From positions 6,659 through 70,658 of the forward strand of contig CAXUEL010000001.1 of the NCBI GenBank assembly GCA_964249915.1: DNA of 64,000 nucleotides. Direction: 5' to 3'. The stretch comes from an uncultured Acetobacteraceae bacterium (GTDB lineage Bacteria; Pseudomonadota; Alphaproteobacteria; Acetobacterales; Acetobacteraceae). The position numbers and the translations under genes were made by a program. Within the stretch, counting starts at the first letter, position 1; each line of letters starts with the position of its first letter. The notes under the pieces were generated by a model. It made no database searches. It worked only from the letters and a program-made list of their open reading frames with translations, and was not told the origin of the DNA. Shown here in pieces: positions 5,111 through 61,671 of the stretch.

Positions 5111-7880
<2,770 letters not shown>

Positions 7881-10468: not shown

Positions 10469-10544
10469 GTCCTGTTCGTCTAGAGGCCTAGGACACCGCC
10501 CTCTCACGGCGGTAACAGGGGTTCGAATCCCCTACGGGACGCCA
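10469..10544 (+). tRNA. tRNA-Glu (anticodon CUC)
   Basis: 76 nt; acceptor GTCCTGT/ACGGGAC, anticodon arm CCGCC-CT-CTC-AC-GGCGG, T-loop GTTCGAATC, encoded CCA. Confidence 0.97.
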
Positions 10545-12174: not shown

Positions 12175-12474
12175 GTGCCTGCCCTACCCTCAACCGTCGC
12201 ACCTGCGGTGCTCTCGTACGCTCAGGCCGCCGACTACCTCGGCCTGCCCTCCGTTGGGGCGCTCAGAAACCTAGTCTACCGAAGGACGGCCCCGCCCTCG
12301 ATCGCTTTCGGCCAGAGGGACCGTCGCTTCCGGAGAGCTGACATCGACGCGTGGCTCGCGGCAAAAGCGCGTGCTGGTCAGGTCGAGAGTGCGGTCGCGG
12401 AGGCACGGCAGCCGCAGGTGCCCCGCCGTAGGGGTAGGCCGACGAAGGCTGAGGCACTGGCGCGGCGGGGGTAG
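12175..12474 (+). CDS. Excisionase / AlpA-like HTH protein
   Basis: LSYAQAADYLGL...RRFRRADIDAWL pattern; basic RRRGRPTK tail. Confidence 0.8.
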   Translation: MPALPSTVAPAVLSYAQAADYLGLPSVGALRNLVYRRTAPPSIAFGQRDRRFRRADIDAWLAAKARAGQVESAVAEARQPQVPRRRGRPTKAEALARRG

Positions 12475-12493
12475 CGGCTGGCAGCATCCCGCC

Positions 12494-12964
12494 ATGCCGC
12501 AGCAGACCACCCGCTATCAGTCCCCCTTCCCCGAGGTCTCGGACGTGCGCCGCCGCACGATGTCCAGGATCCGCAGTAAGAACACCAAGCCAGAGATGCT
12601 GGTCCGCCGAGCGATCCATGGCCTGGGCTACCGCTTCAGGCTGCATCGCCGAGATCTGCCCGGCCGACCTGACATCGTGTTCCCCGGTAGACGCAAGGCC
12701 GTCTTCATCCACGGCTGCTTCTGGCACCAGCACGCCATGCCTGGCTGCCGGGATTCAGGGCTGCCTCGAACGCGACGAGACTACTGGGTCCCCAAGTTGG
12801 AGAGGAATGTTGCCCGCGATCGTTGCAACGTGGCCGAACTGCGCGCCGCTGGATGGGGCGTGTTGGTCATCTGGGAATGCGAGCTCAATGACATGCAGGC
12901 AGTCCTCGAACGCCTCGTCGCGTTTCTTGGGCTACCAAGATCAGCAGGCCAGCCAAAGCGGTGA
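12494..12964 (+). CDS. vsr: Very short patch repair endonuclease
   Basis: MSRIRSKNTKPE, GYRFRLH..DLPGRPDIVF, FIHGCFWHQH, LVIWEC. Confidence 0.93.
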   Translation: MPQQTTRYQSPFPEVSDVRRRTMSRIRSKNTKPEMLVRRAIHGLGYRFRLHRRDLPGRPDIVFPGRRKAVFIHGCFWHQHAMPGCRDSGLPRTRRDYWVPKLERNVARDRCNVAELRAAGWGVLVIWECELNDMQAVLERLVAFLGLPRSAGQPKR

Positions 12965-13648: not shown

Positions 13649-14623
13649 ATGCACACATCAATCGACCTGTTCTGCGGCGCCGGTGGCCTCTCGATCGGTC
13701 TGGAGCGCTCGGGGTTCGCCCCACTGTTTGCGGCCGACATCATGAGCGATGCCTGCGACACCTATGCCGCCCGGTTCCAGGGCGTGGAGCTTCATCGCGG
13801 CGATACCCGGACGGTTGATTTCAAGCGCTTCAGCGGCATTGACCTGGTTGCGGGCGGCCCGCCCTGCCAGCCCTTCAGCTCCGGGGGGAAGCGAGAAGGG
13901 CGTGACGACGCGCGTGACGTGCTGCCGGAGTTCGTGCGCGCCGTGCTTGAGGCTGGGCCGCGTGCGTTCCTGATGGAGAACGTCGCTGGCTTAGCCACGA
14001 CCCATGTGGCCTACCTGAACCGCGTCCTGGCGCCCCTTTTCGGGCGCTATACGATCACAGGTCCGACAGTTCTTAACGCCGCCGACTTCGGCGTTCCTCA
14101 AAGCCGCAAGCGGATGGTAATCGTCGGAGTGGAGAAGGGGCGCAGGGCCGTGAGGCTGCCCACCTCAACCGTGCGGCGCCACACACGATCCGGGGATATC
14201 CTTTCGCCTCGCGCACGAGGAACCCTGAATCTCAGCCGCATCACCTACGCGAAGACACCCGACCTCAGGCCATCCCCCTATCACGGCCAGCTATTCAACG
14301 GCGGCGGCCGTCCTATCGACCTGGATGGCCCGGCCCCTACGATCCTGGCGTCAGCCGGAGGGAACAAGACGCCATTCGTAGACGTAGGTGGCCACGTCCC
14401 GTCGTACCATGGCCACCTTCTCGCTGGTGGGCCGCCGCGTCAGGGCGATCTAGACGATGCGCGGCGCATCACAGTCGAGGAGTGCGCTGCGCTTCAGACC
14501 TTCCCTGAGGACATGAGATTCAGCGGCTCGCGGAGCTCTCGCTACACTCAGGTTGGAAATGCAGTCCCGCCGCTGTTCGCGGCGGCCGTCGCAAGCTGCG
14601 TCCTGGAGGCGCTCCGCCGGTAG
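13649..14623 (+). CDS. DNA (cytosine-5)-methyltransferase
   Basis: DLFCGAGG, GGPPCQPFS, ENV, QSRKR, QTFP, QVGNAVPP (motifs I, IV, VI, VIII, IX, X). Confidence 0.95.
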   Translation: MHTSIDLFCGAGGLSIGLERSGFAPLFAADIMSDACDTYAARFQGVELHRGDTRTVDFKRFSGIDLVAGGPPCQPFSSGGKREGRDDARDVLPEFVRAVLEAGPRAFLMENVAGLATTHVAYLNRVLAPLFGRYTITGPTVLNAADFGVPQSRKRMVIVGVEKGRRAVRLPTSTVRRHTRSGDILSPRARGTLNLSRITYAKTPDLRPSPYHGQLFNGGGRPIDLDGPAPTILASAGGNKTPFVDVGGHVPSYHGHLLAGGPPRQGDLDDARRITVEECAALQTFPEDMRFSGSRSSRYTQVGNAVPPLFAAAVASCVLEALRR

Positions 14624-14625
14624 CT

Positions 14626-15693
14626 TCACGGGGCCACATCCGGGATCTCCACGAGAGCATTGGCCTCAAGCACCGCCACCAAGCGATTCGCTGGTCCGAC
14701 ATCCGCTACCATGTGAGCGAGGTATTCATGAAGCCTCATCAGGAAGCGCTCCCTTCCAGGCTTCCGAAGGATCGCGACACCGGTCATCAAGAGCGACCGG
14801 ATGTCGAGGACAGAGACATCTCCCCCTGCCTGCTCCAGAACGTCCAGGCTGCTGATAATGTCTCCCGCCGTCGCGTGCGCCACCACGTGCGCCCGATCAA
14901 GGCCGCGGCCTCTGGCGACATCCGCCGCCTGGTCGATCTTGGTCCTCCAGTCGTTTGCGGACACCTCGAACGCCTCATCCACTCGGCCAAGAGTCAGGAT
15001 CTCGACATCCCCTGCCGTGCCGGAGCTGGCGTCGCTCGCGTTCAGGCGCTTGGTCTGGACGCGCATGCCTCCGATGGACCACTCGCCCAGCAGCGCCTCC
15101 ATGATGGCTGCCACTGAGTATTGCTCCATGGCACCGCCACTTCCCTCTGCCAGGATGTCGCGCAGCACCTTCAAAGTCGCGGCGAAGGTCAGCCTGGCGG
15201 TCAGTATCCTAGGCAACGGCCGGATGCTGCGGGCGGTGGAGGCTGCTTTCGCGAGCAGGAATGTCAGAGCGGCACGACGATCGCCCGCGGATGCCGCGTT
15301 GGCCCACAGCAGGAGGCTGTCGAAGTGCGCAACGTTTCCTCGGGCAAGGTTGTCGACGTTCTTCCCAATGTTCTGGAAGGCGTCCGTCACCGCCGGGATG
15401 TGCCGCTTCCTCATCAAGGAGCCCAGGCTCTTCGCGATGCCTCTGCCTCCCGGTGCGCGCTGCCGATGATCAAAGTGCTGCCCATCTGCGGTGAGGCCAG
15501 ATGCAATCTGGATGATGGCGCCGTCTCGGTAGCTCTGCGCCGCTTGCAGGGTGCCTTCCAGCAGCGGAAGGGCCGCCGCGAGCGCCCTGGCGTCGACAGC
15601 CTGATCGCTGCCTCCGGCATTGAGCAAAAGAGAGTCCAGGATGCTGGCCACAAGCTCGACGGCAGGCTCCGCCATGTCGTCATTCTCCGTCAA
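14626..15693 (-). CDS. Probable type II restriction endonuclease (possibly SacI-like)
   Basis: Convergent with the C5 MTase; SGGAMEQ...NASDASSGTAGDVE...AFEVS resembles a PD-(D/E)XK core. Confidence 0.6.
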   Translation of the reverse strand: MTENDDMAEPAVELVASILDSLLLNAGGSDQAVDARALAAALPLLEGTLQAAQSYRDGAIIQIASGLTADGQHFDHRQRAPGGRGIAKSLGSLMRKRHIPAVTDAFQNIGKNVDNLARGNVAHFDSLLLWANAASAGDRRAALTFLLAKAASTARSIRPLPRILTARLTFAATLKVLRDILAEGSGGAMEQYSVAAIMEALLGEWSIGGMRVQTKRLNASDASSGTAGDVEILTLGRVDEAFEVSANDWRTKIDQAADVARGRGLDRAHVVAHATAGDIISSLDVLEQAGGDVSVLDIRSLLMTGVAILRKPGRERFLMRLHEYLAHMVADVGPANRLVAVLEANALVEIPDVAP

Positions 15694-20349: not shown

Positions 20350-20603
20350 GACGGGCACGCTCCTGTGGGCGGTGGCGGCGGGCCTTCTTGGACGAGCGCG
20401 AGCATCACGGTGTCCAGGAGCGCAAGCACGGTTCCGAGTGCCTGGACCTTGTCCGGGTCGCACTTCCATCCGACCAAGAGGACGGCGGCGTTGATGATCG
20501 CGACGATGGTGCTGGCTTGGGTGAGCTGCCCAAGGATGATGGCCGCCGCGCCCGGGCGGCACCGCCACCGCCAGTGGCCGAACCGGTCAGGCACCCACCG
20601 CAT
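20346..20603 (-). CDS. Putative holin
   Basis: 85 aa with 2 hydrophobic segments, directly after the endolysin. Confidence 0.6.
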   Translation of the reverse strand: MRWVPDRFGHWRWRCRPGAAAIILGQLTQASTIVAIINAAVLLVGWKCDPDKVQALGTVLALLDTVMLALVQEGPPPPPTGACPS

Positions 20604-21210
20604 GGCGGACCTCCTCGGCGAAGGATGCGAACAACCCGACGTGCGCCGGGGCCGCGACAGGCGCCGGTGTCGGTGCGGCCGCCGGTGTCGCCAGGGCGAG
20701 CTGCAGCCTGGCGTTGTTCCGATTGGTCCAGCCGCGGCCGAACTCGGCGAAGTCGGTCAGGCTCTCGTAGTACGCCTCGTGCCTGGCGCCCAGCTTCCGG
20801 ATCAGGTCCAGCCGGTCGACGCGGGCGGTCGCGGCCAGGGTCACCGGGCCGAGGCGACCGTCGATTGCGAGGCCGCCGATGGTCTCCTGCAGCAGCTTTG
20901 CGGCGGTCGCCGATCCGGCCGTGTAGCCGAAGTCGTAACAGAGTAGGTCTACACCCGGCGGGAGCTGGTCTGCTGCGACCGCCATCCAGTAGCGGCTGTA
21001 GATCAGGTCGCTCAGCTCGTCCTTGGTCGCGGCCGCGAGGTCGGCTTCCGTGGTCGAGTGAATCCCGTGGTCGGACCGCCAGGAGGCGTAGGACGATAGG
21101 GTGACTCCCCAGGACGTGGCCCCGCCCCTGTCACCGGGTGTGACGTGCAAGGGCTGGCCGTCGTTCTGCGGAAGCCATGTAAAGTCCAAGCAGGTTTCGA
21201 AGCGGCTCAT
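20587..21210 (-). CDS. Endolysin, GH108 family with peptidoglycan-binding C-terminus
   Basis: PGDRGGATSWGVT, IYSRYW, LPPGVDLLCYDFG, IDGRLGPVTL, FGRGWTNR; GGAGG RBS. Confidence 0.85.
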   Translation of the reverse strand: MSRFETCLDFTWLPQNDGQPLHVTPGDRGGATSWGVTLSSYASWRSDHGIHSTTEADLAAATKDELSDLIYSRYWMAVAADQLPPGVDLLCYDFGYTAGSATAAKLLQETIGGLAIDGRLGPVTLAATARVDRLDLIRKLGARHEAYYESLTDFAEFGRGWTNRNNARLQLALATPAAAPTPAPVAAPAHVGLFASFAEEVRHAVGA

Positions 21211-21221
21211 GTGCGCCTCCA

Positions 21222-21250
21222 ATAAAAAAAGGCCGCCCGAAGGCAGCCCG
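21222..21250 (-). terminator. Intrinsic terminator immediately upstream of the endolysin
   Basis: Minus strand GGGCTGCC-TTC-GGGCGGCC followed by T7. Confidence 0.7.
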
Positions 21251-21279: not shown

Positions 21280-21477
21280 CTAGCCGAGCTCGCGAATCAG
21301 GTCAGCGAGCGTCCGCGGGCGGTCGGCATCGTCGGCGGCGGCGAGCAGTCGGGCGGCAAGGATGCGGGCGAGGTCGGACCGGAGTTCGACGTTGACGTCG
21401 GCGCCGTATGTCTCAAGGTGGAGGGAGATTTTGACGAGCTCGGCCACGGATGGGCCGACTTCGATGCGCGACGTCAT
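21280..21477 (-). CDS. Hypothetical protein (65 aa)
   Basis: GGAGGCGCACATG start context identical to the endolysin's. Confidence 0.6.
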   Translation of the reverse strand: MTSRIEVGPSVAELVKISLHLETYGADVNVELRSDLARILAARLLAAADDADRPRTLADLIRELG

Positions 21478-21589
21478 GTGCGCCTCCTGAAAATGAAGAA
21501 CCCCGCCGATGAGGACGGGGGCCGTTGGTGGTTGGGGTGTTCAGACCGCTCGGCGAGCGGTAGCTGTTGGCGGCAGCCTGGAGGCCGAC

Positions 21590-22111
21590 ATGGTCAGCGC
21601 CCACCCACATTCGTTCCGCCTTCATCTAAAGCGATGGGGACGGTCCGTCGGAGGGTTCCACGATGATAAGGTCAGCGAGAAGTCTGTCTGGCTGTTCGTG
21701 TCAGCCTGTAGTTGGACGGACGACGAGTTTGTCTTGAGCAACGGTGAACAGGTTTACTCCCGAGACTTTCGTCTCGTGGTGTATCCAGGCGAACCGCTAC
21801 TCCGTGACGGCACGCAGATAACAGGAGGAGGCGGCATCCTAAGCTACGTTCCAGCCTACGACGAGCTAGCGTCCAGCTTCGATGGTCGTGTCTACGTCGA
21901 CCAGGAATGCTTCGCGGACATTTGCAGCCTGCTTCCCGCCATGGCTACCGGCGGATATGAGTGCGACCTCCGCATGGCGCTGAGCGGCCTGGAGTTCAAA
22001 TTACCGGAGACCTTCGTCTGGGATGTCGATGCAAACCCGCACATCGTCATCCAATCTTTCCAGTTTGGCATCACGTCGAAGGCGCCGCCGGAGGACGACG
22101 GTCAGCCGTAA
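21590..22111 (+). CDS. Moron-like hypothetical protein, antisense to the late operon
   Basis: GGAGG RBS; lower GC; globular composition. Confidence 0.65.
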   Translation: MVSAHPHSFRLHLKRWGRSVGGFHDDKVSEKSVWLFVSACSWTDDEFVLSNGEQVYSRDFRLVVYPGEPLLRDGTQITGGGGILSYVPAYDELASSFDGRVYVDQECFADICSLLPAMATGGYECDLRMALSGLEFKLPETFVWDVDANPHIVIQSFQFGITSKAPPEDDGQP

Positions 22112-22685
22112 CCGCCTGCCGTAGGGCTCGAGCATCCTCCAGAAGCGCACGCACCTCTTCGACGGCGCAGTCGAGGTCGTCGTTCTCGACTTGGTGGTCG
22201 AACTCGCTCCGATGGGACATCTCCGAACCCGCATCCGCCATCCTGGACTCGATGTCGGCAGCGGCGTCGCCACGGCGTTCCAGGCGCGCCCGGAGTTCCG
22301 CCATCGACGGCGGCACGAGGAACACGCCCACGACGTCGCCGGGGAGCTGGTCGCGGAGCCGACGGTGGCCTTGCCAGTCGATGACGAAGACCACGTCGGT
22401 TCCGGCATCCAGGGCGGCCTCGACCGGCGCCCTCGGAATGCCGTAGCTGCGGCCGAAGACGGTGGCGTGCTCGAGCATGGAGTCCGACGTCACGAGGAGG
22501 TCGAACTCCCTTTGGTCGCAGAAATAGTAGTCGACCCCGTCAAGCTCGCCTGGTCGCGGGGACCGGGTGGTGGCGCTGACCGACTGCCGCAGGCCAGGGT
22601 CGGTGGCGAGCAGCCTGGACATCATCGTGGTCTTGCCGCCGCCGGACGGCGAGGCCAGCACCAGGCATAGACCACGACGGCTCAT
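22071..22685 (-). CDS. gmk: Guanylate kinase (phage-borne)
   Basis: LASPSGGGKTT P-loop, SVSATTRSPRPGELDGVDYYF, LEHATVFGRSYG, VIDWQG, VFLVPPS.AELRARL. Confidence 0.92.
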   Translation of the reverse strand: MSRRGLCLVLASPSGGGKTTMMSRLLATDPGLRQSVSATTRSPRPGELDGVDYYFCDQREFDLLVTSDSMLEHATVFGRSYGIPRAPVEAALDAGTDVVFVIDWQGHRRLRDQLPGDVVGVFLVPPSMAELRARLERRGDAAADIESRMADAGSEMSHRSEFDHQVENDDLDCAVEEVRALLEDARALRQAVTADRRPPAAPST

Positions 22686-22858
22686 GATGCGGCCCTCCTG
22701 GCGGCGGCGGCCTCGATATCGCGGCGCTCTTGGATGACGGTGTTCACCGTCCGTCGTGTGCATCCCATGCGCTCGGCGATCACCGAGGACGACAGCCCTT
22801 GTCGATGAAGATGCCAGATTCGGTCGTGGTCGACCGAGGTGTTGCTGCGGGCGGCCAT
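22682..22858 (-). CDS. 58-aa HTH protein (not in the ORF track)
   Basis: Manual translation MAARSNTSVDHDRIWHLHRQGLSSSVIAERMGCTRRTVNTVIQERR...; TGATG and ATGA overlaps with both neighbours. Confidence 0.8.
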   Translation of the reverse strand: MAARSNTSVDHDRIWHLHRQGLSSSVIAERMGCTRRTVNTVIQERRDIEAAAARRAAS

Positions 22859-24603
22859 CACGCAGCCCTCCTGAGCGCAGCAACCTGGACAACCGGAGCG
22901 CCTCTCCAGCGTGGGCCACGCTGCGTCAGGATTGCGCGCTTCCCGCTAGGATACGTAACAATGTGGCTGTGTGACCAGGAACTCGGCCCGCAGTTGTAGC
23001 CCATGTCCAGGTTTCCGCTGACCCCGGCGGTGTAGATGCCGTCCGTGATGCCTGCGGAGTGCGTGTGCGCGGTGTTCGCCCGCACGCCGAGTTGCCGGAA
23101 GGACCGCGGCGAACCCCTGGAACCGTTGGGGCCGCGGTGTCCATGCAACCCGCATTGGATGCCACCGCCCTGTTCGGCGCAGACCACCCACGAGTCATCT
23201 TCGCGCAGGAACCGGACCGCCTTAGCCACGTCGGACAGCTTATCCCGTACGGCGGCTTCGAACACGAAGAGGTCCTGCCCGGCCTCGATGCTCTGGAACA
23301 TCCTGTAGTTCCAGTAGTGCCAGAACCTCGCGTTCGGCGCGTCCCGGTGGCCATCGGCCTCGGCCAGCCACCTGCGGAAAGCCTGGTCGTGATTGGATTC
23401 CACGACGACTGTCTGGCACCAGTCGCGGTGGATCCTATCCAGCTTGGCCGCGCACCCTGCGAGGTCGGCCTCTACCCTGTCCAGGCCCCGTGCGTGCATT
23501 ACCGCGTTGAAGTATGGGTCCTGCCTGTTGTGATGGTTGCGCGCGGTGAAGTCCGCTAAATCATGCACATGCTGCTCGCGCGGGCGGAGGGACTCCAGGA
23601 TGGAGCCGGGACCGCCGAAGCATGCGTCAGCGACGATGGGGTCTGCCTTCTCTTCGTGGAAGTCCCCCCATGTCACCGCCTCGACACGAGACCTTGTGAC
23701 ACCGGTCGGCGAGTAGTGGAACTCCAGGTCGTGGAAGCATCCGCTGTCGTCGGCGAGCAACTGCCGGACAAACCAAGCGCCATCGGCATCGACTTCGACG
23801 ACCAGGGCACCGAACACGTGATGAAAGCTGGCCTTCTGTCCGGCTTTCCTCTCGACGTAATTTCGCTGGGTGACGGTTCCCGTCGTGTACAGGAAGCGAG
23901 CCGCTTCATGCTTCATCGTCGCCATGCTCTTCATGGCGACCTTCGCATGCGGCACTATCGCCGACGCCGACCGCGTGTAGCTGTCGAGACCGGAAAGCGG
24001 ATCGGTCGCGGTAGGCAAGATATCCAGCTCTCCGCACCACACCAGGCCATGCGCTAGCTCCAGACTCTCATCGCACACGTATTCGAGGATTTCCGGATCA
24101 TACCAGAGGTCTTCGTCCTGCTTGGTCGCCTTCGAGGCCCATGCCGACTTGTTATAAGAGAACCGCGACACGAGGATTTCCGCGTCGTGTGCGGCGGCGT
24201 AGGTGCGCAGGCTTGCGAGGAAGCCAGAATGCACGTGGGTGTTGTTCTGCGCGCTTGTCAGCACGAACCTTCGACGGTCGCGGCTGACAGGTTTCGGGGC
24301 CGGGCTGGGGATGCGGCCACCAGCGACCGGGCGCTCCTCGGTGTCATCGTTCGCGGGTACGGCATCCGGAGCGCTGCGTGTCTCCAGCAGCAGCCTAAGC
24401 GCCGCGACCTGAGCGACCAAGTCCTCGACGGTGGGTGCCGCACCGACTCGCGTAGCGGCCACCTTTCGACGGCGGTGGATTGTTGCGGGTGAGACCCCTT
24501 CGAGCTGCGCTTCCGCGCGGAGCGTCATGGGGCGGTGCGCGACCTCGGCAGATGCCGGGACAACGGGCGCACGCGTGGCGACGTTGGTTCGCATGTGTTT
24601 CAT
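22858..24603 (-). CDS. T5 A1-like metallophosphoesterase / putative DNase with N-terminal HTH
   Basis: RFVLTSAQNNT, LPTATDPLSG, KAGQKASFHHVFGALVVE, WGDFHEEK, HDLADFTARNHHNR, VVESNHD, GLHGHRGPNGSRG, THSAGI, LDMGYN collinear with recalled T5 A1. Confidence 0.85.
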   Translation of the reverse strand: MKHMRTNVATRAPVVPASAEVAHRPMTLRAEAQLEGVSPATIHRRRKVAATRVGAAPTVEDLVAQVAALRLLLETRSAPDAVPANDDTEERPVAGGRIPSPAPKPVSRDRRRFVLTSAQNNTHVHSGFLASLRTYAAAHDAEILVSRFSYNKSAWASKATKQDEDLWYDPEILEYVCDESLELAHGLVWCGELDILPTATDPLSGLDSYTRSASAIVPHAKVAMKSMATMKHEAARFLYTTGTVTQRNYVERKAGQKASFHHVFGALVVEVDADGAWFVRQLLADDSGCFHDLEFHYSPTGVTRSRVEAVTWGDFHEEKADPIVADACFGGPGSILESLRPREQHVHDLADFTARNHHNRQDPYFNAVMHARGLDRVEADLAGCAAKLDRIHRDWCQTVVVESNHDQAFRRWLAEADGHRDAPNARFWHYWNYRMFQSIEAGQDLFVFEAAVRDKLSDVAKAVRFLREDDSWVVCAEQGGGIQCGLHGHRGPNGSRGSPRSFRQLGVRANTAHTHSAGITDGIYTAGVSGNLDMGYNCGPSSWSHSHIVTYPSGKRAILTQRGPRWRGAPVVQVAALRRAA

Positions 24604-24726
24604 GGTGCGACCTCGTCCGGGTGGTTTGCAGGAACGCAGCGGGAAGTCCGCGTCCTCAAAGTCAGCTTGACGAAGCGGCACGCACAAAAGCAAGAAGGCT
24701 GCAAGCAAAGGATGCTGTTATTCGTG

Positions 24727-24755
24727 TTATGTCCACAGCCTTTGCGGAATGTAAA
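24727..24755 (-). promoter_or_regulatory. Candidate sigma70 promoter for the A1-HTH-gmk operon
   Basis: TTTACA-N18-CATAAC in an AT-rich gap on the minus strand. Confidence 0.4.
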
Positions 24756-24758
24756 CTT

Positions 24759-25124
24759 TTAGCGGTGACCGAAGCGGTTGTCCTTGAGAAACACCACGTC
24801 TGCTCCGACTTCTGCCAACTTCGTGCGGAGGTCGCTGAGCGTGTCGGACAGCAGGCGCATCTGCTCGTCTCGGCTCTTCGTCCGCTCCTCAAACTCCATT
24901 TCGAGATGCGAAAGCCGCTTTTCGTGATCGGCGAGTTGGGAGTAAGCACCCGCTGCATACCAGATGCCTACGACGAGTTGAGCCAGGACTGCGATAATCA
25001 CCGCTACGCCAATCGACTTGTCGATTTGCCATCCGCTCGGCGCACGGACTATCACGCTCTGTACAGATGCGGACGGAGCTACAATTGTCGGAGGCGGTGC
25101 TCCGGAAGTCGTGGATTCGGACAT
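24759..25124 (-). CDS. Single-TM + coiled-coil protein (holin/XhlA-like)
   Basis: WQIDKSIGVAVIIAVLAQLVVGIWYAA followed by heptad repeats; lower GC. Confidence 0.6.
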   Translation of the reverse strand: MSESTTSGAPPPTIVAPSASVQSVIVRAPSGWQIDKSIGVAVIIAVLAQLVVGIWYAAGAYSQLADHEKRLSHLEMEFEERTKSRDEQMRLLSDTLSDLRTKLAEVGADVVFLKDNRFGHR

Positions 25125-25170
25125 GCGCGTAGACTTCCTGTTCGCGCACATCGGCGCCGTAATTATGTAG

Positions 25171-51557: not shown

Positions 51558-51856
51558 CGCCGCCCCCTGCTGAGCTCGACCATCCGCACTTCGGCGGCGG
51601 CGACCCTTACGAGCCGGACGACCTCCGCCCACGGGATTCCTGTATCTCTGGCCAGCAAAATCGCTCCGATGACCTCCGCCCGAACCTGCTCCCGGCGCCA
51701 CGCAGAGTCCTCGCGGTCCAGGAGGCCGAGGTCGATGGCGGCTTGCTCGATGCGTGCCCGATGGACGGGCACGACGGCCTCGCCGATCAGGAACGCGTCG
51801 CTGACGCGGCGGACCTCGGCGATGCGCGGGAGCACGGTGTCGCGGGCGGGCTTCAT
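51554..51856 (-). CDS. Hypothetical protein (100 aa)
   Basis: Coupled to both neighbours by 4-nt overlaps. Confidence 0.6.
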   Translation of the reverse strand: MKPARDTVLPRIAEVRRVSDAFLIGEAVVPVHRARIEQAAIDLGLLDREDSAWRREQVRAEVIGAILLARDTGIPWAEVVRLVRVAAAEVRMVELSRGRR

Positions 51857-52389
51857 GCTGCGGACTCCCTGGGTGTTCCTCGCTTCGGCAGGGTCGCCAG
51901 CTTCCACCGAATCTCGGAGAGCTGCACGGGGCGGTAGTCCCAGGCGTCGACGCCCACATCGCACGACTGCCGGTCGCCGGGGAGCTGTCCGTGTGAGTGG
52001 CCGTAAAGGTGCAGCGACCCGTGGTGGCTCCGTGGCCATACGCGCATCGAGTAGTGCAGGAGCACGATACGCATGCCATCCACCGTCAGCTCGGCCATCG
52101 CCTGCGATGACGTCCACGCCGGATGCTCGCGGCATTCCTGCGAGTCGTGGTTGCCGTGAATCAGGTGCTTCCTGCCCGTCAGTCGCGCGAGGTAGCTGCC
52201 GGGGGATTTCGTTCCTCGGAATGCAAAGTCCCCGACCACCCACACATCGTCATCTGCCTGCACGACGGCATTCCAATTTGCGATGAGCGCGCCGTCCATC
52301 TCTCGGCTGTCCGCGAAAGGTCGGGAGCAATGCTTGATGATTTGCGAGTGACCGAGATGTAGGTCGGATGTAAACCAGGTCCTGCTCAT
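51853..52389 (-). CDS. Calcineurin-like metallophosphoesterase
   Basis: FTSDLHLGH, VVGDF, IHGNHD, LLHY, LYGHSH, DVGVD. Confidence 0.9.
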   Translation of the reverse strand: MSRTWFTSDLHLGHSQIIKHCSRPFADSREMDGALIANWNAVVQADDDVWVVGDFAFRGTKSPGSYLARLTGRKHLIHGNHDSQECREHPAWTSSQAMAELTVDGMRIVLLHYSMRVWPRSHHGSLHLYGHSHGQLPGDRQSCDVGVDAWDYRPVQLSEIRWKLATLPKRGTPRESAA

Positions 52390-60870: not shown

Positions 60871-61569
60871 TCAGGGCCTGTGGCGGACCTCGTCTATGAG
60901 CCGGGTGAGCGCTGACGCGGTCAGCCCGAGTCGCTCGCGGATTACCTCGTGCGTCAGCCCCTCGGCGACGAACGCGGATACCCTCGACCGTAGGTGTGCG
61001 TCACGCCTTGCGGCCCAGTCAGCCTTGCCCTCGGGTGCGGCCCCGGCGAGCTGCAGGTCCTGCCACTCCCGCTCTCGAACGGTGGGCGCCTGGGTCGCAA
61101 GGAGCGCCAGGACATCGGGCGGCCGAAGCGCGAGGCGGCGCCCGACCGTCCGGACGTCGAGGCCGTCGCCATGCACCATGTCCCACGCGATTTCGGCGGC
61201 CGTCGGCAAACGGGGAGCGGTCTCTGTCGGCGGGGGACAGCCTCTTCTGCGGGCTTCGCGAGCCAGTGCGTTCTTGATGCCATCCGCCGAGAACCCCATC
61301 CTCGCTGCGATCTGTTCCGGTGAGGCGCCCTGCTCGGCGAGCCGCCAAGCCTCGAGGATGTCGATGCGTCGCGGTCGGGGCCCTGGTGGGGCAGCGGCTT
61401 CGTTGGCGGGGGGCGCCGGTGGTTCCGGCGCGGGAGGTTCGTAGGCGGCGAGCAGGGTGAGGAGTTCGGGGATGTCGATGCTGAGCTGGACGGCGGCCTG
61501 CCTTAGCGGGATGTCGCGTTCGTTGACGAGGGCCCAGGCGGTGGTGGGAGTCGGTGGAGGCTTTGGCAT
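60871..61569 (-). CDS. Multi-HTH protein
   Basis: Four HTH-like segments (LRQAAVQLSI; PEQIAARMGF; VRTVGRRLAL; HEVIRERLGL) with Pro-rich linkers. Confidence 0.65.
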   Translation of the reverse strand: MPKPPPTPTTAWALVNERDIPLRQAAVQLSIDIPELLTLLAAYEPPAPEPPAPPANEAAAPPGPRPRRIDILEAWRLAEQGASPEQIAARMGFSADGIKNALAREARRRGCPPPTETAPRLPTAAEIAWDMVHGDGLDVRTVGRRLALRPPDVLALLATQAPTVREREWQDLQLAGAAPEGKADWAARRDAHLRSRVSAFVAEGLTHEVIRERLGLTASALTRLIDEVRHRP

Positions 61570-61671
61570 CCTCGATTCTGGATCGGGTGGCTGCACGCGA
61601 CGAAGGGGATTCCGCTGGCGGAAACGGTACCGACGTTGTTGCGTTATCGGCGCGAACAACCGGGGCCCCCG

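Follow-up and report, generated by a model that had tools for sequence, protein, structure and literature searches.

Host chromosome degradation by bacteriophage T5 is carried out by A1, an essential protein that is both necessary and sufficient for it in vivo, and the deoxynucleoside monophosphates (dNMPs) released are dephosphorylated by T5 Dmp and then excreted (bioRxiv 10.64898/2026.04.02.716235). A2, a DNA-binding protein that binds A1, is required for DNA transfer, but not for degradation, and the pre-early genes stand in the order A2-005-A1-003-002-dmp. In addition, A1 is purified together with RNA polymerase and switches off pre-early transcription. According to a recent T5 study, A1 is mainly restricted to T5-like phages; homologues outside this group have been known since 2012 (PMC3556154). 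Here we describe an A1 homologue in a stretch of 64,000 nucleotides (contig CAXUEL010000001.1, positions 6,659 to 70,658; hereafter the window), which contains a temperate myovirus prophage integrated at a tRNA-Glu gene, whose host is probably a member of the Acetobacteraceae. In this prophage A1 opens an operon with genes for a small helix-turn-helix (HTH) protein and a guanylate kinase (Gmk). The operon is real, but it is not a new three-part system: the conserved core is A1, joined in one sublineage by the small HTH, and Gmk is cargo seen twice.

The A1-HTH-Gmk operon

Three minus-strand open reading frames (ORFs) are present at the positions reported by the first-pass annotation of this DNA, and their coordinates and codons bear out the TGATG and ATGA overlaps that it had described (lengths are given in amino acids, aa):

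22858..24603, minus strand: A1-like protein, 581 aa, a predicted metallophosphoesterase of the T5 A1 family
22682..22858, minus strand: 58-aa helix-turn-helix protein, coupled to A1 via TGATG
22071..22685, minus strand: guanylate kinase (Gmk), 204 aa, coupled to HTH via ATGA

The A1 stop codon TGA (22860-22858) and the ATG of the 58-aa gene (22858-22856) share an A, which gives TGATG; an alternative GTG start of the latter, one codon upstream, would make GTGA. Likewise, the HTH stop TGA (22684-22682) overlaps the Gmk ATG (22685-22683), giving ATGA. Ribosome-binding sites are seen as GAGG 8 nt before the A1 ATG and as GGAGG 8 nt before the HTH and Gmk starts. Since the HTH start codon overlaps the A1 stop, A1 and HTH would be made together. 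Identical 4-nt overlaps occur in four relatives (L005, L006, L007, and L009, listed below). Stop-start overlaps of this kind are ordinary in phage operons and by themselves mean no more than chance. The three gene identities proposed by the first-pass annotation are likewise upheld by PHROG, Pfam, and TIGR03263 matches, as detailed below.

The A1 start is best placed at the ATG at 24603, which aligns with the starts of its relatives (called products of 575-590 aa). The protein consists of a variable N-terminal region of ~90 aa, helical in the structural model, and a core of ~480 aa homologous to T5 A1. It matches phrog_1745 ("DNA transfer protein", the T5 A1 family) with an E-value of 3.6e-189 over profile positions 40-541 of 542, and is 40.8% identical to T5 A1 itself over 493 columns. 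In a tblastn search A1 was matched in 1,134 phage records, with ~41% identity to T5-like phages over residues 89-566, 52% to Pseudomonas phage pf16, and 47% to Rhizobium phage RHEph03. Several residues are invariant in 13 diverse homologues including T5 (D314, H316, H347, D348, D351, N356, H357, H358, S403, N404, H405, D406, H487, G488, H513, and H515), and the motifs that they form (GDxH, HDxxD, NHH, SNHD, HGH, and GHxH) follow the pattern of a calcineurin-like two-metal site. The invariance of metal-binding residues across the family, the window protein included, argues for catalysis. As for structure, an AlphaFold (AF2) model built from 32 homologues has a mean predicted local distance difference test score (pLDDT) of 81.9; among viral predicted structures it matches pf16 (1e-65), followed by proteins annotated as calcineurin-like or metallo-dependent phosphatases (2e-7 to 3.5e-4). 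No match to A1 was found in Pfam, NCBIfam, or a single-sequence search of the PDB, and the sole result of a profile search against the PDB, 3-dehydroquinate dehydratase, is spurious. Judged by its homology and intact motifs, the window A1 would be catalytically active as a phosphoesterase and would attack host DNA during lytic growth. The prophage also encodes a second calcineurin-like metallophosphoesterase of 178 aa (51853-52389, minus strand; phrog_547 / Metallophos_2), whose size and context are unlike those of A1.

The 58-aa protein matches HTH_23 exactly at the cutoff (24.6 bits against 24.6; 2.2e-5), HTH_29 below it (25.6 bits against 28.1; 1.3e-5), and phrog_3855, "HTH DNA binding protein" (8.3e-6). 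Homologues stand immediately after A1 in L005, L006, L007, and L009, and a profile of the five proteins confirms their homology. The same profile reveals no coupled copy beside the A1 genes of the phiCbK, pf16, and RHEph03 type or of distant viral loci. Some distant A1 proteins show a weak match to the small HTH at their N-termini; the similarity of the small HTH to the N-terminus of the window A1 is not significant. Coupling and conservation suggest that the small HTH may act as a DNA-binding partner or regulator of A1, and thus as a non-homologous analogue of A2. A paralogue of it is found near the right end of the prophage, in a 233-aa protein (60871-61572, minus strand) with a profile E-value of 3.6e-12 and a weaker second copy; phrog_3855 is matched by both proteins, which may recognise related DNA sites.

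Gmk is, by all sequence criteria applied, a complete guanylate kinase. It scores 193.7 bits against TIGR03263, for which the equivalog cutoff is 160.45, over positions 3-178 of 180, and matches PF00625 with 1e-35. All 54 of the 54 columns invariant across 21 guanylate kinases are retained, including S14-G15-x-G17-K18, T39-T40-R41-x-P43-R44, E47, Y53, E72, R79-S80-Y81-G82, D103-W104-Q105-G106, R134, R138, D140, and R148, and the P-loop, GMP-binding, and lid residues are intact. The nearest relative is the copy in L005 (79% identity). Other matches are 56-72% identical, the named ones belonging to Acidiphilium, Acidocella, Limobrevibacterium, and other Acetobacteraceae; since these are bacterial and largely Acetobacteraceae enzymes, Gmk is regarded as host-type cargo. 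The neighbourhoods of four of the closest Gmk matches show neither A1 nor common phage genes: some of these contexts look chromosomal (e.g., beside rpoD), and others lie amid small unannotated genes. An exact-protein look-up found no record of the window Gmk. Among sequenced phages, a guanylate kinase (PHROG 1815) is present in 103 of 50,697 records, at <=41% identity to the window protein.

A conserved A1 core and a variable cargo slot

Relatives were collected by a search of 5.8 billion proteins, in which the 120 best A1 hits listed are 48-89% identical to the window protein. A1 homologues with E <= 1e-20 number more than 1,400 proteins. L005 is the closest relative found with a readable gene neighbourhood. 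The neighbourhoods compared are the following, with identity referring to A1 and genes given in order after it:

L005 (4.2-Mb chromosome), 87%: HTH (60 aa), Gmk (195 aa), 65-aa gene, endolysin
L006, 77%: HTH, followed without interruption by the 65-aa gene and endolysin; Gmk absent
L007, 73%: HTH, then a C5 DNA methylase (5646-6437) in the place of the window's Gmk
L009, 70%: HTH, a second HTH-containing gene, an opposite-strand gene, a 51-aa gene, endolysin
L008, 68%: no overlapping small gene
L003 (Acidisoma), 59%: neither HTH nor Gmk; endolysin after A1; upstream genes unannotated
L100 (large bacterial contig), 56%: no small HTH, no Gmk; A1 follows baseplate/fibre genes, GH108 endolysin downstream
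L099 (large bacterial contig), 53%: no small HTH, no Gmk; A1 follows baseplate/fibre genes

In all related prophages examined, A1 stands shortly before the lysis genes, an endolysin being seen after it in the window, L003, L005, L006, L009, and L100. A1, HTH, and Gmk, by contrast, occur together in the window and L005 only. A1 is accompanied by the small HTH, without Gmk, in L006, L007, and L009, and by neither in L003, L004, L008, L099, and L100. The A1 homologue of L004, an alphaproteobacterial metagenome-assembled genome (MAG), at 6001-7717, is split into two frames at ~7194-7199, owing either to pseudogene formation or to an assembly error. More distant A1 loci were obtained by alignment-based scans, single-protein scans of viral and metagenome contigs having given nothing; a Gmk profile has 0 matches in 160 of them (80 from IMG/VR and 80 from metagenomes, with A1 identities of 41-56%). 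The first-pass annotation had proposed a dedicated three-gene system and named co-occurrence of A1, HTH, and Gmk in other genomes as its test. That proposal fails, because L003, L004, L006-L009, L099, L100, and the 160 distant loci all lack the full trio. The same comparison across relatives and distant loci identifies A1, with HTH in a sublineage, as the conserved core and Gmk as cargo.

DNA alignment with L005 and L006 shows how the cargo is placed. Gmk (in the window and L005) and a plus-strand ORF (in the window) are insertions at a single site, between the HTH stop and a hairpin kept in the window, L005, and L006. Because the same slot holds a C5 methylase in L007, it evidently accepts unrelated cargo. 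In the window the slot and its downstream border comprise, besides Gmk:

21590..22111, plus strand: opposite-strand ORF, 173 aa (200 aa if the start is at 21509), the second cargo in the slot
21501..21520, minus strand: terminator-like hairpin T1 (-13.7 kcal/mol, z -2.3), which closes the cargo slot
21280..21477, minus strand: 65-aa gene between the operon and the lysis cassette, sharing 75% identity with its counterpart in L005 and 52% with that in L006

The plus-strand ORF, which was called as a gene, runs towards Gmk and covers the last 41 bp of the kinase gene. Its GC content is low (0.595), it shows no clear ribosome-binding site, and it is missing from L005 and L006. The search of 5.8 billion proteins yielded no homologue, and the sole weak relative is the opposite-strand gene in the equivalent slot of L009. 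Temperate phages such as lambda and P2-like phages have morons and cargo hotspots, and the ORF may be a moron expressed in the lysogen. As for the 65-aa gene, no match was found in the family and profile libraries scanned (Pfam, PHROG, and PADLOC-DB).

Outside the related prophages, genes following A1 were surveyed in 67 viral loci. Nucleotide-pool enzymes account for 20 of the 145 ORFs just downstream of A1: 12 dATP/dGTP diphosphohydrolase-like proteins, 4 ribonucleotide reductases (RNR), 2 dUTPases, 1 dNMP kinase, and 1 5'-nucleotidase. This count fits a link between A1 and the nucleotide pool, and may also reflect no more than the grouping of replication genes that lytic phages show. Most frequent after A1 in this survey is PF18909, the dATP/dGTP diphosphohydrolase type (12 of 145 ORFs), followed by ClpP-like proteins (10). 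In RHEph03-like podoviruses (L002, 7461-8403; IMG/VR loci L016-L095), the genes after A1 are an HD-domain-like gene and a member of PF18909.

Prophage setting and signals at the ends of the unit

The gene content of the window marks the element as a temperate myovirus prophage, as indicated by the integrase and tRNA-Glu together with a gene order running from terminase to tail fibres and lysis genes. Its G+C content is 66.1%, versus 71.7% in the bacterial flank. Apart from the left end, most of the element is on the minus strand, in the order primase-polymerase (56.7-59.4 kb), large terminase, portal, major head protein, sheath, tape measure, baseplate, and tail fibres (25.5-28.4 kb). Past the tail fibres follow a 130-aa protein, the A1-HTH-Gmk operon, the 65-aa gene, and a GH108 endolysin, beyond which the translations show a holin-like gene and two spanin-like genes that overlap. 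The features of the left end and those that flank the operon and its slot are:

10469-10544: tRNA-Glu at the left end of the prophage, with the integrase beside it
12371-12964: Vsr-like nicking endonuclease, prophage left end
13649-14623 and 14626-15693: type II methyltransferase / restriction enzyme pair, prophage left end
24759..25151, minus strand: 130-aa protein, predicted to have a membrane helix and a coiled coil, directly upstream of A1
24604..24758, minus strand: intergenic region of 155 bp upstream of A1, 54% GC versus 66% in the prophage
21230..21249, minus strand: hairpin T2, intrinsic-terminator-like with a U7 tail (-15.4 kcal/mol, z -2.9)
20587..21222, minus strand: GH108 endolysin, first gene of the lysis cassette, with its likely start at the ATG at 21210

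The operon therefore lies between the tail-fibre genes and the endolysin, as the first-pass annotation had stated. Its wording "inside the lysis module" is loose, because the 65-aa gene, the opposite-strand ORF, and two hairpins separate the operon from the endolysin. The latter is identified by Glyco_hydro_108 (2.4e-15) and phrog_315 (3.7e-33), with a visible ribosome-binding site and ATG. The 130-aa protein on the other side accompanies A1, having homologues upstream of it in L003, L004, L005, L006, L009, and L036. It gives a weak Rz-like match (phrog_7686, 8e-6); the true spanins, however, are likely the genes downstream of the endolysin.

The region upstream of A1 contains two blocks conserved in relatives, GCAAAGGCTGTGGACA (24745-24730) and CTTGCTTTTGTG (24694-24683), and the blocks common to L005, L006, L007, and L009 are GCAAAG-N3-GT[GT][GT]AC[AG], CTTGCTTTTGTG, and TTCGTCACGCTG. 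The first upstream block occurs only once in the window, and its identification as a repeated phage promoter was therefore rejected. The first-pass annotation had placed a candidate promoter here, TTTACA (24755-24750)-N18-CATAAC (24731-24726). These hexamers are indeed in the sequence and match the consensus at 9 of 12 positions with an 18-nt spacer, having C at the last -10 position; they are unsupported as a promoter, being unreported by a consensus scan and having the -35 hexamer replaced in the nearest relative L005. No Rfam match was found for the upstream region, and a three-sequence consensus fold of it gave no informative structure. An inverted repeat AAGGCTG/CAGCCTT with 34-nt spacing is present in the window (24695-24745) and in L005 (9860-9907), not in L006, and is a candidate operator.

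At the other end, T1 shortly precedes the ribosome-binding site of the 65-aa gene, with a hairpin at the matching place in L005 and L006. T2 stands immediately before the endolysin ribosome-binding site; its sequence is kept in L005 and L006, and the hairpin at this position in L009 is formed by a different sequence. These signals suggest a transcription unit that begins in the conserved upstream region and ends at T1 or T2, and separate control of entry into the lysis genes: given the position of T2 directly before the endolysin ribosome-binding site, these genes may need read-through or antitermination.

Interpretation and comparison with known systems

The locus is probably best explained as a module for host-DNA degradation, in which A1 and HTH form the conserved two-gene unit and Gmk is accessory cargo that recycles (d)GMP. 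During lytic growth A1 would break down host DNA, with the HTH protein serving it as DNA-binding partner or regulator, and Gmk, translated from the shared message, would phosphorylate the liberated (d)GMP to (d)GDP, providing extra capacity for a phage genome of 66% G+C. The unit has its own conserved upstream region and ends at the conserved hairpin before the 65-aa gene, followed by the second terminator and the lysis genes. In T4 (gp1 dNMP kinase) and T7 (gp1.7), host DNA is turned into dNMPs that are rephosphorylated by a phage kinase. The direction proposed for the window would be salvage, as in these phages, and the reverse of that in T5, where the last gene of the A1 operon encodes Dmp, an enzyme that removes the phosphate from dNMPs so that they can be exported. 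Co-expression of a nuclease and a (d)GMP kinase, the idea of degradation and recycling put forward by the first-pass annotation, stays plausible, whereas the dedicated system that it proposed does not agree with the co-occurrence data.

Several observations weigh against this explanation. Nuclease activity of purified A1 is still to be demonstrated even for T5, and the A1 model has only weak PDB matches in Foldseek (PP2A, a Pyrococcus phosphoesterase, Mre11, and MPPED2, all at E >= 0.018). In BLASTP the small HTH gives no alignment with T5 A2 at E <= 100, and since similarity to A2 is lacking, it is gene coupling that speaks for a partnership with A1. The benefit of Gmk could be small or nil, because it covers one of four nucleotides and the host must own a gmk gene. 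As for expression, the consensus promoter scan reports nothing in 24604..24758, and among public sequencing runs none holds the window sequence (<=5% of words shared). Finally, the authors of the phiCbK study considered A1 homologues outside T5 to be transcription factors, not nucleases (PMC3556154).

A reading close to that of the phiCbK authors would see in A1 chiefly a regulatory protein, and no DNase, that binds to RNA polymerase or to DNA and, together with HTH, times lysis or shuts off host transcription, with Gmk as a hitch-hiker. The behaviour of T5 A1 towards RNA polymerase and pre-early transcription agrees with it, as do the HTH found in the N-terminal region of some family members (HTH_23 in pf16, a TyrR-like domain reported in phiCbK; PMC3556154) and the position of the gene directly before a terminator-guarded lysis cassette. 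However, the metal-binding residues of the phosphoesterase are all invariant across the family, including the window A1, and in T5 A1 alone suffices for chromosome degradation in vivo (bioRxiv 10.64898/2026.04.02.716235), which leaves this reading doubtful. Slightly less credible, and unlikely, is a role in defence or counter-defence, also raised by the first-pass annotation, according to which Gmk refills guanine pools depleted by host immunity, or A1 and HTH, as a nuclease and regulator expressed from the prophage, act against incoming phages. The slot does resemble a moron or cargo hotspot (Gmk, C5 methylase, and the opposite-strand orphan ORF), an upstream region and terminator-like ends belong to the unit itself, and a restriction-modification system and Vsr are likewise encoded in the prophage. 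The defence proposal is disfavoured, however, by the absence of PADLOC-DB v2 matches for A1, HTH, Gmk, and the orphan plus-strand ORF (the HTH reaching only 0.009 to mad1), by the status of A1 homologues as core genes of strictly lytic phages, with A1 essential in T5, and by the expected lethality of a host-DNA-degrading enzyme in a lysogen unless it is tightly inhibited. A more speculative and distinctly unlikely combination would treat A1-HTH and the slot as an autonomously regulated temperate-phage cassette, in which HTH replaces A2 non-homologously and restrains or targets the nuclease, sparing phage DNA, and the cargo (Gmk, methylase, or orphan ORF) tunes nucleotide supply or a nucleotide-based conflict between phage and immunity.

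That A1, HTH, and Gmk were selected as a unit to degrade DNA and recycle guanine nucleotides is very unlikely. The three genes are translationally coupled in both the window and L005, the substrate of the kinase is a product of DNA breakdown, and nucleotide-pool enzymes often adjoin A1, with Dmp near A1 in T5. Nevertheless, the trio is confined to two prophages with 87% identity between their A1 proteins, the neighbourhood survey contradicts joint selection, the slot being empty or holding other cargo in L006, L007, and L009, no Gmk occurs in the 160 distant A1 loci, and the nearest Gmk relatives stand in contexts without A1. The least probable reading of all, hardly to be expected, assigns Gmk to modified purine synthesis, either to phosphorylation of dZMP for a 2-aminoadenine genome or to a deazaguanine pathway. 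Guanylate kinase does phosphorylate dZMP in Z-genome phages, and a gene of the dATP/dGTP diphosphohydrolase type follows A1 in RHEph03-like phages, but no PurZ-, DatZ-, MazZ-, or deazaguanine-pathway-like gene is present among the window proteins scanned, and the close relative L006 has no Gmk.

Phage guanylate kinases and A1 homologues outside T5-like phages are already described, and cargo slots are ordinary. Taken as a stand-alone discovery it is modest, combining a known nuclease family, a known auxiliary gene class, and an ordinary cargo-slot pattern. The window A1 shares its family with those of Caulobacter phage phiCbK, Pseudomonas phage pf16, Rhizobium phage RHEph03, and ~160 uncultured viral contigs (42-56% identity), and several homologues outside the Demerecviridae carry an HTH in the variable N-terminal region. 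In contrast to the window, A1 genes of the phiCbK, pf16, and RHEph03 type belong to modules for DNA replication and nucleotide metabolism in phages that appear to be lytic. The genes after them encode ClpP-like or MazZ-like proteins, ligase, or RNR, and none of these A1 genes has a small coupled HTH or Gmk. A full-length phage guanylate kinase as an auxiliary gene is shared with the phages of PHROG 1815 (Bacillus Tsamsa-like, Lactococcus 949-like, and Liberibacter SC1/SC2), whose kinases, however, are <=41% identical to the window Gmk, none being listed from a phage group with A1.

With T4 and T7 the window would share the logic of degradation and rephosphorylation. The nucleases and kinases, however, are unrelated in sequence, and in the window guanine only is covered, by a kinase that is optional in the lineage. 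As in moron hotspots, a fixed site before a terminator-like hairpin holds differing, unrelated genes among relatives. Unlike morons, the window Gmk is not an autonomous cassette of promoter, gene, and terminator, being joined to the upstream operon by a 4-nt overlap.

The T5 module is similar in its homologous A1 catalytic core (40.8% identity, all metal-site motifs), in having a gene for a small DNA-binding protein near A1, and in ending the operon with an enzyme that acts on (d)NMPs. It differs in that A2 is unrelated in sequence to the window HTH and lies upstream of A1 rather than downstream, and in that its terminal enzyme is a phosphatase, used for disposal, whereas the window has a kinase, suited to salvage. 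The window phage is, moreover, a temperate myovirus, its genes stand between the tail-fibre and lysis genes of an integrated prophage, in contrast to those of T5 in the first-entering terminal repeat, and two-step DNA transfer is not implied for it. To our knowledge, neither the constant placement of A1 directly ahead of the lysis cassette across a group of temperate myoviruses, nor its coupling to a small HTH unrelated to A2, nor the inversion of kinase for phosphatase relative to T5 has been described before. The locus shows the A1 family in temperate myoviruses, with a salvage kinase in two cases instead of a disposal phosphatase. It bears on the question of how T5 A1 destroys the host chromosome yet spares phage DNA, and raises the questions of what A1 needs a DNA-binding partner for and whether host-DNA breakdown is tied to nucleotide recycling. 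For these, a two-gene core with optional cargo offers a simpler and genetically separable setting than the pre-early module of T5.

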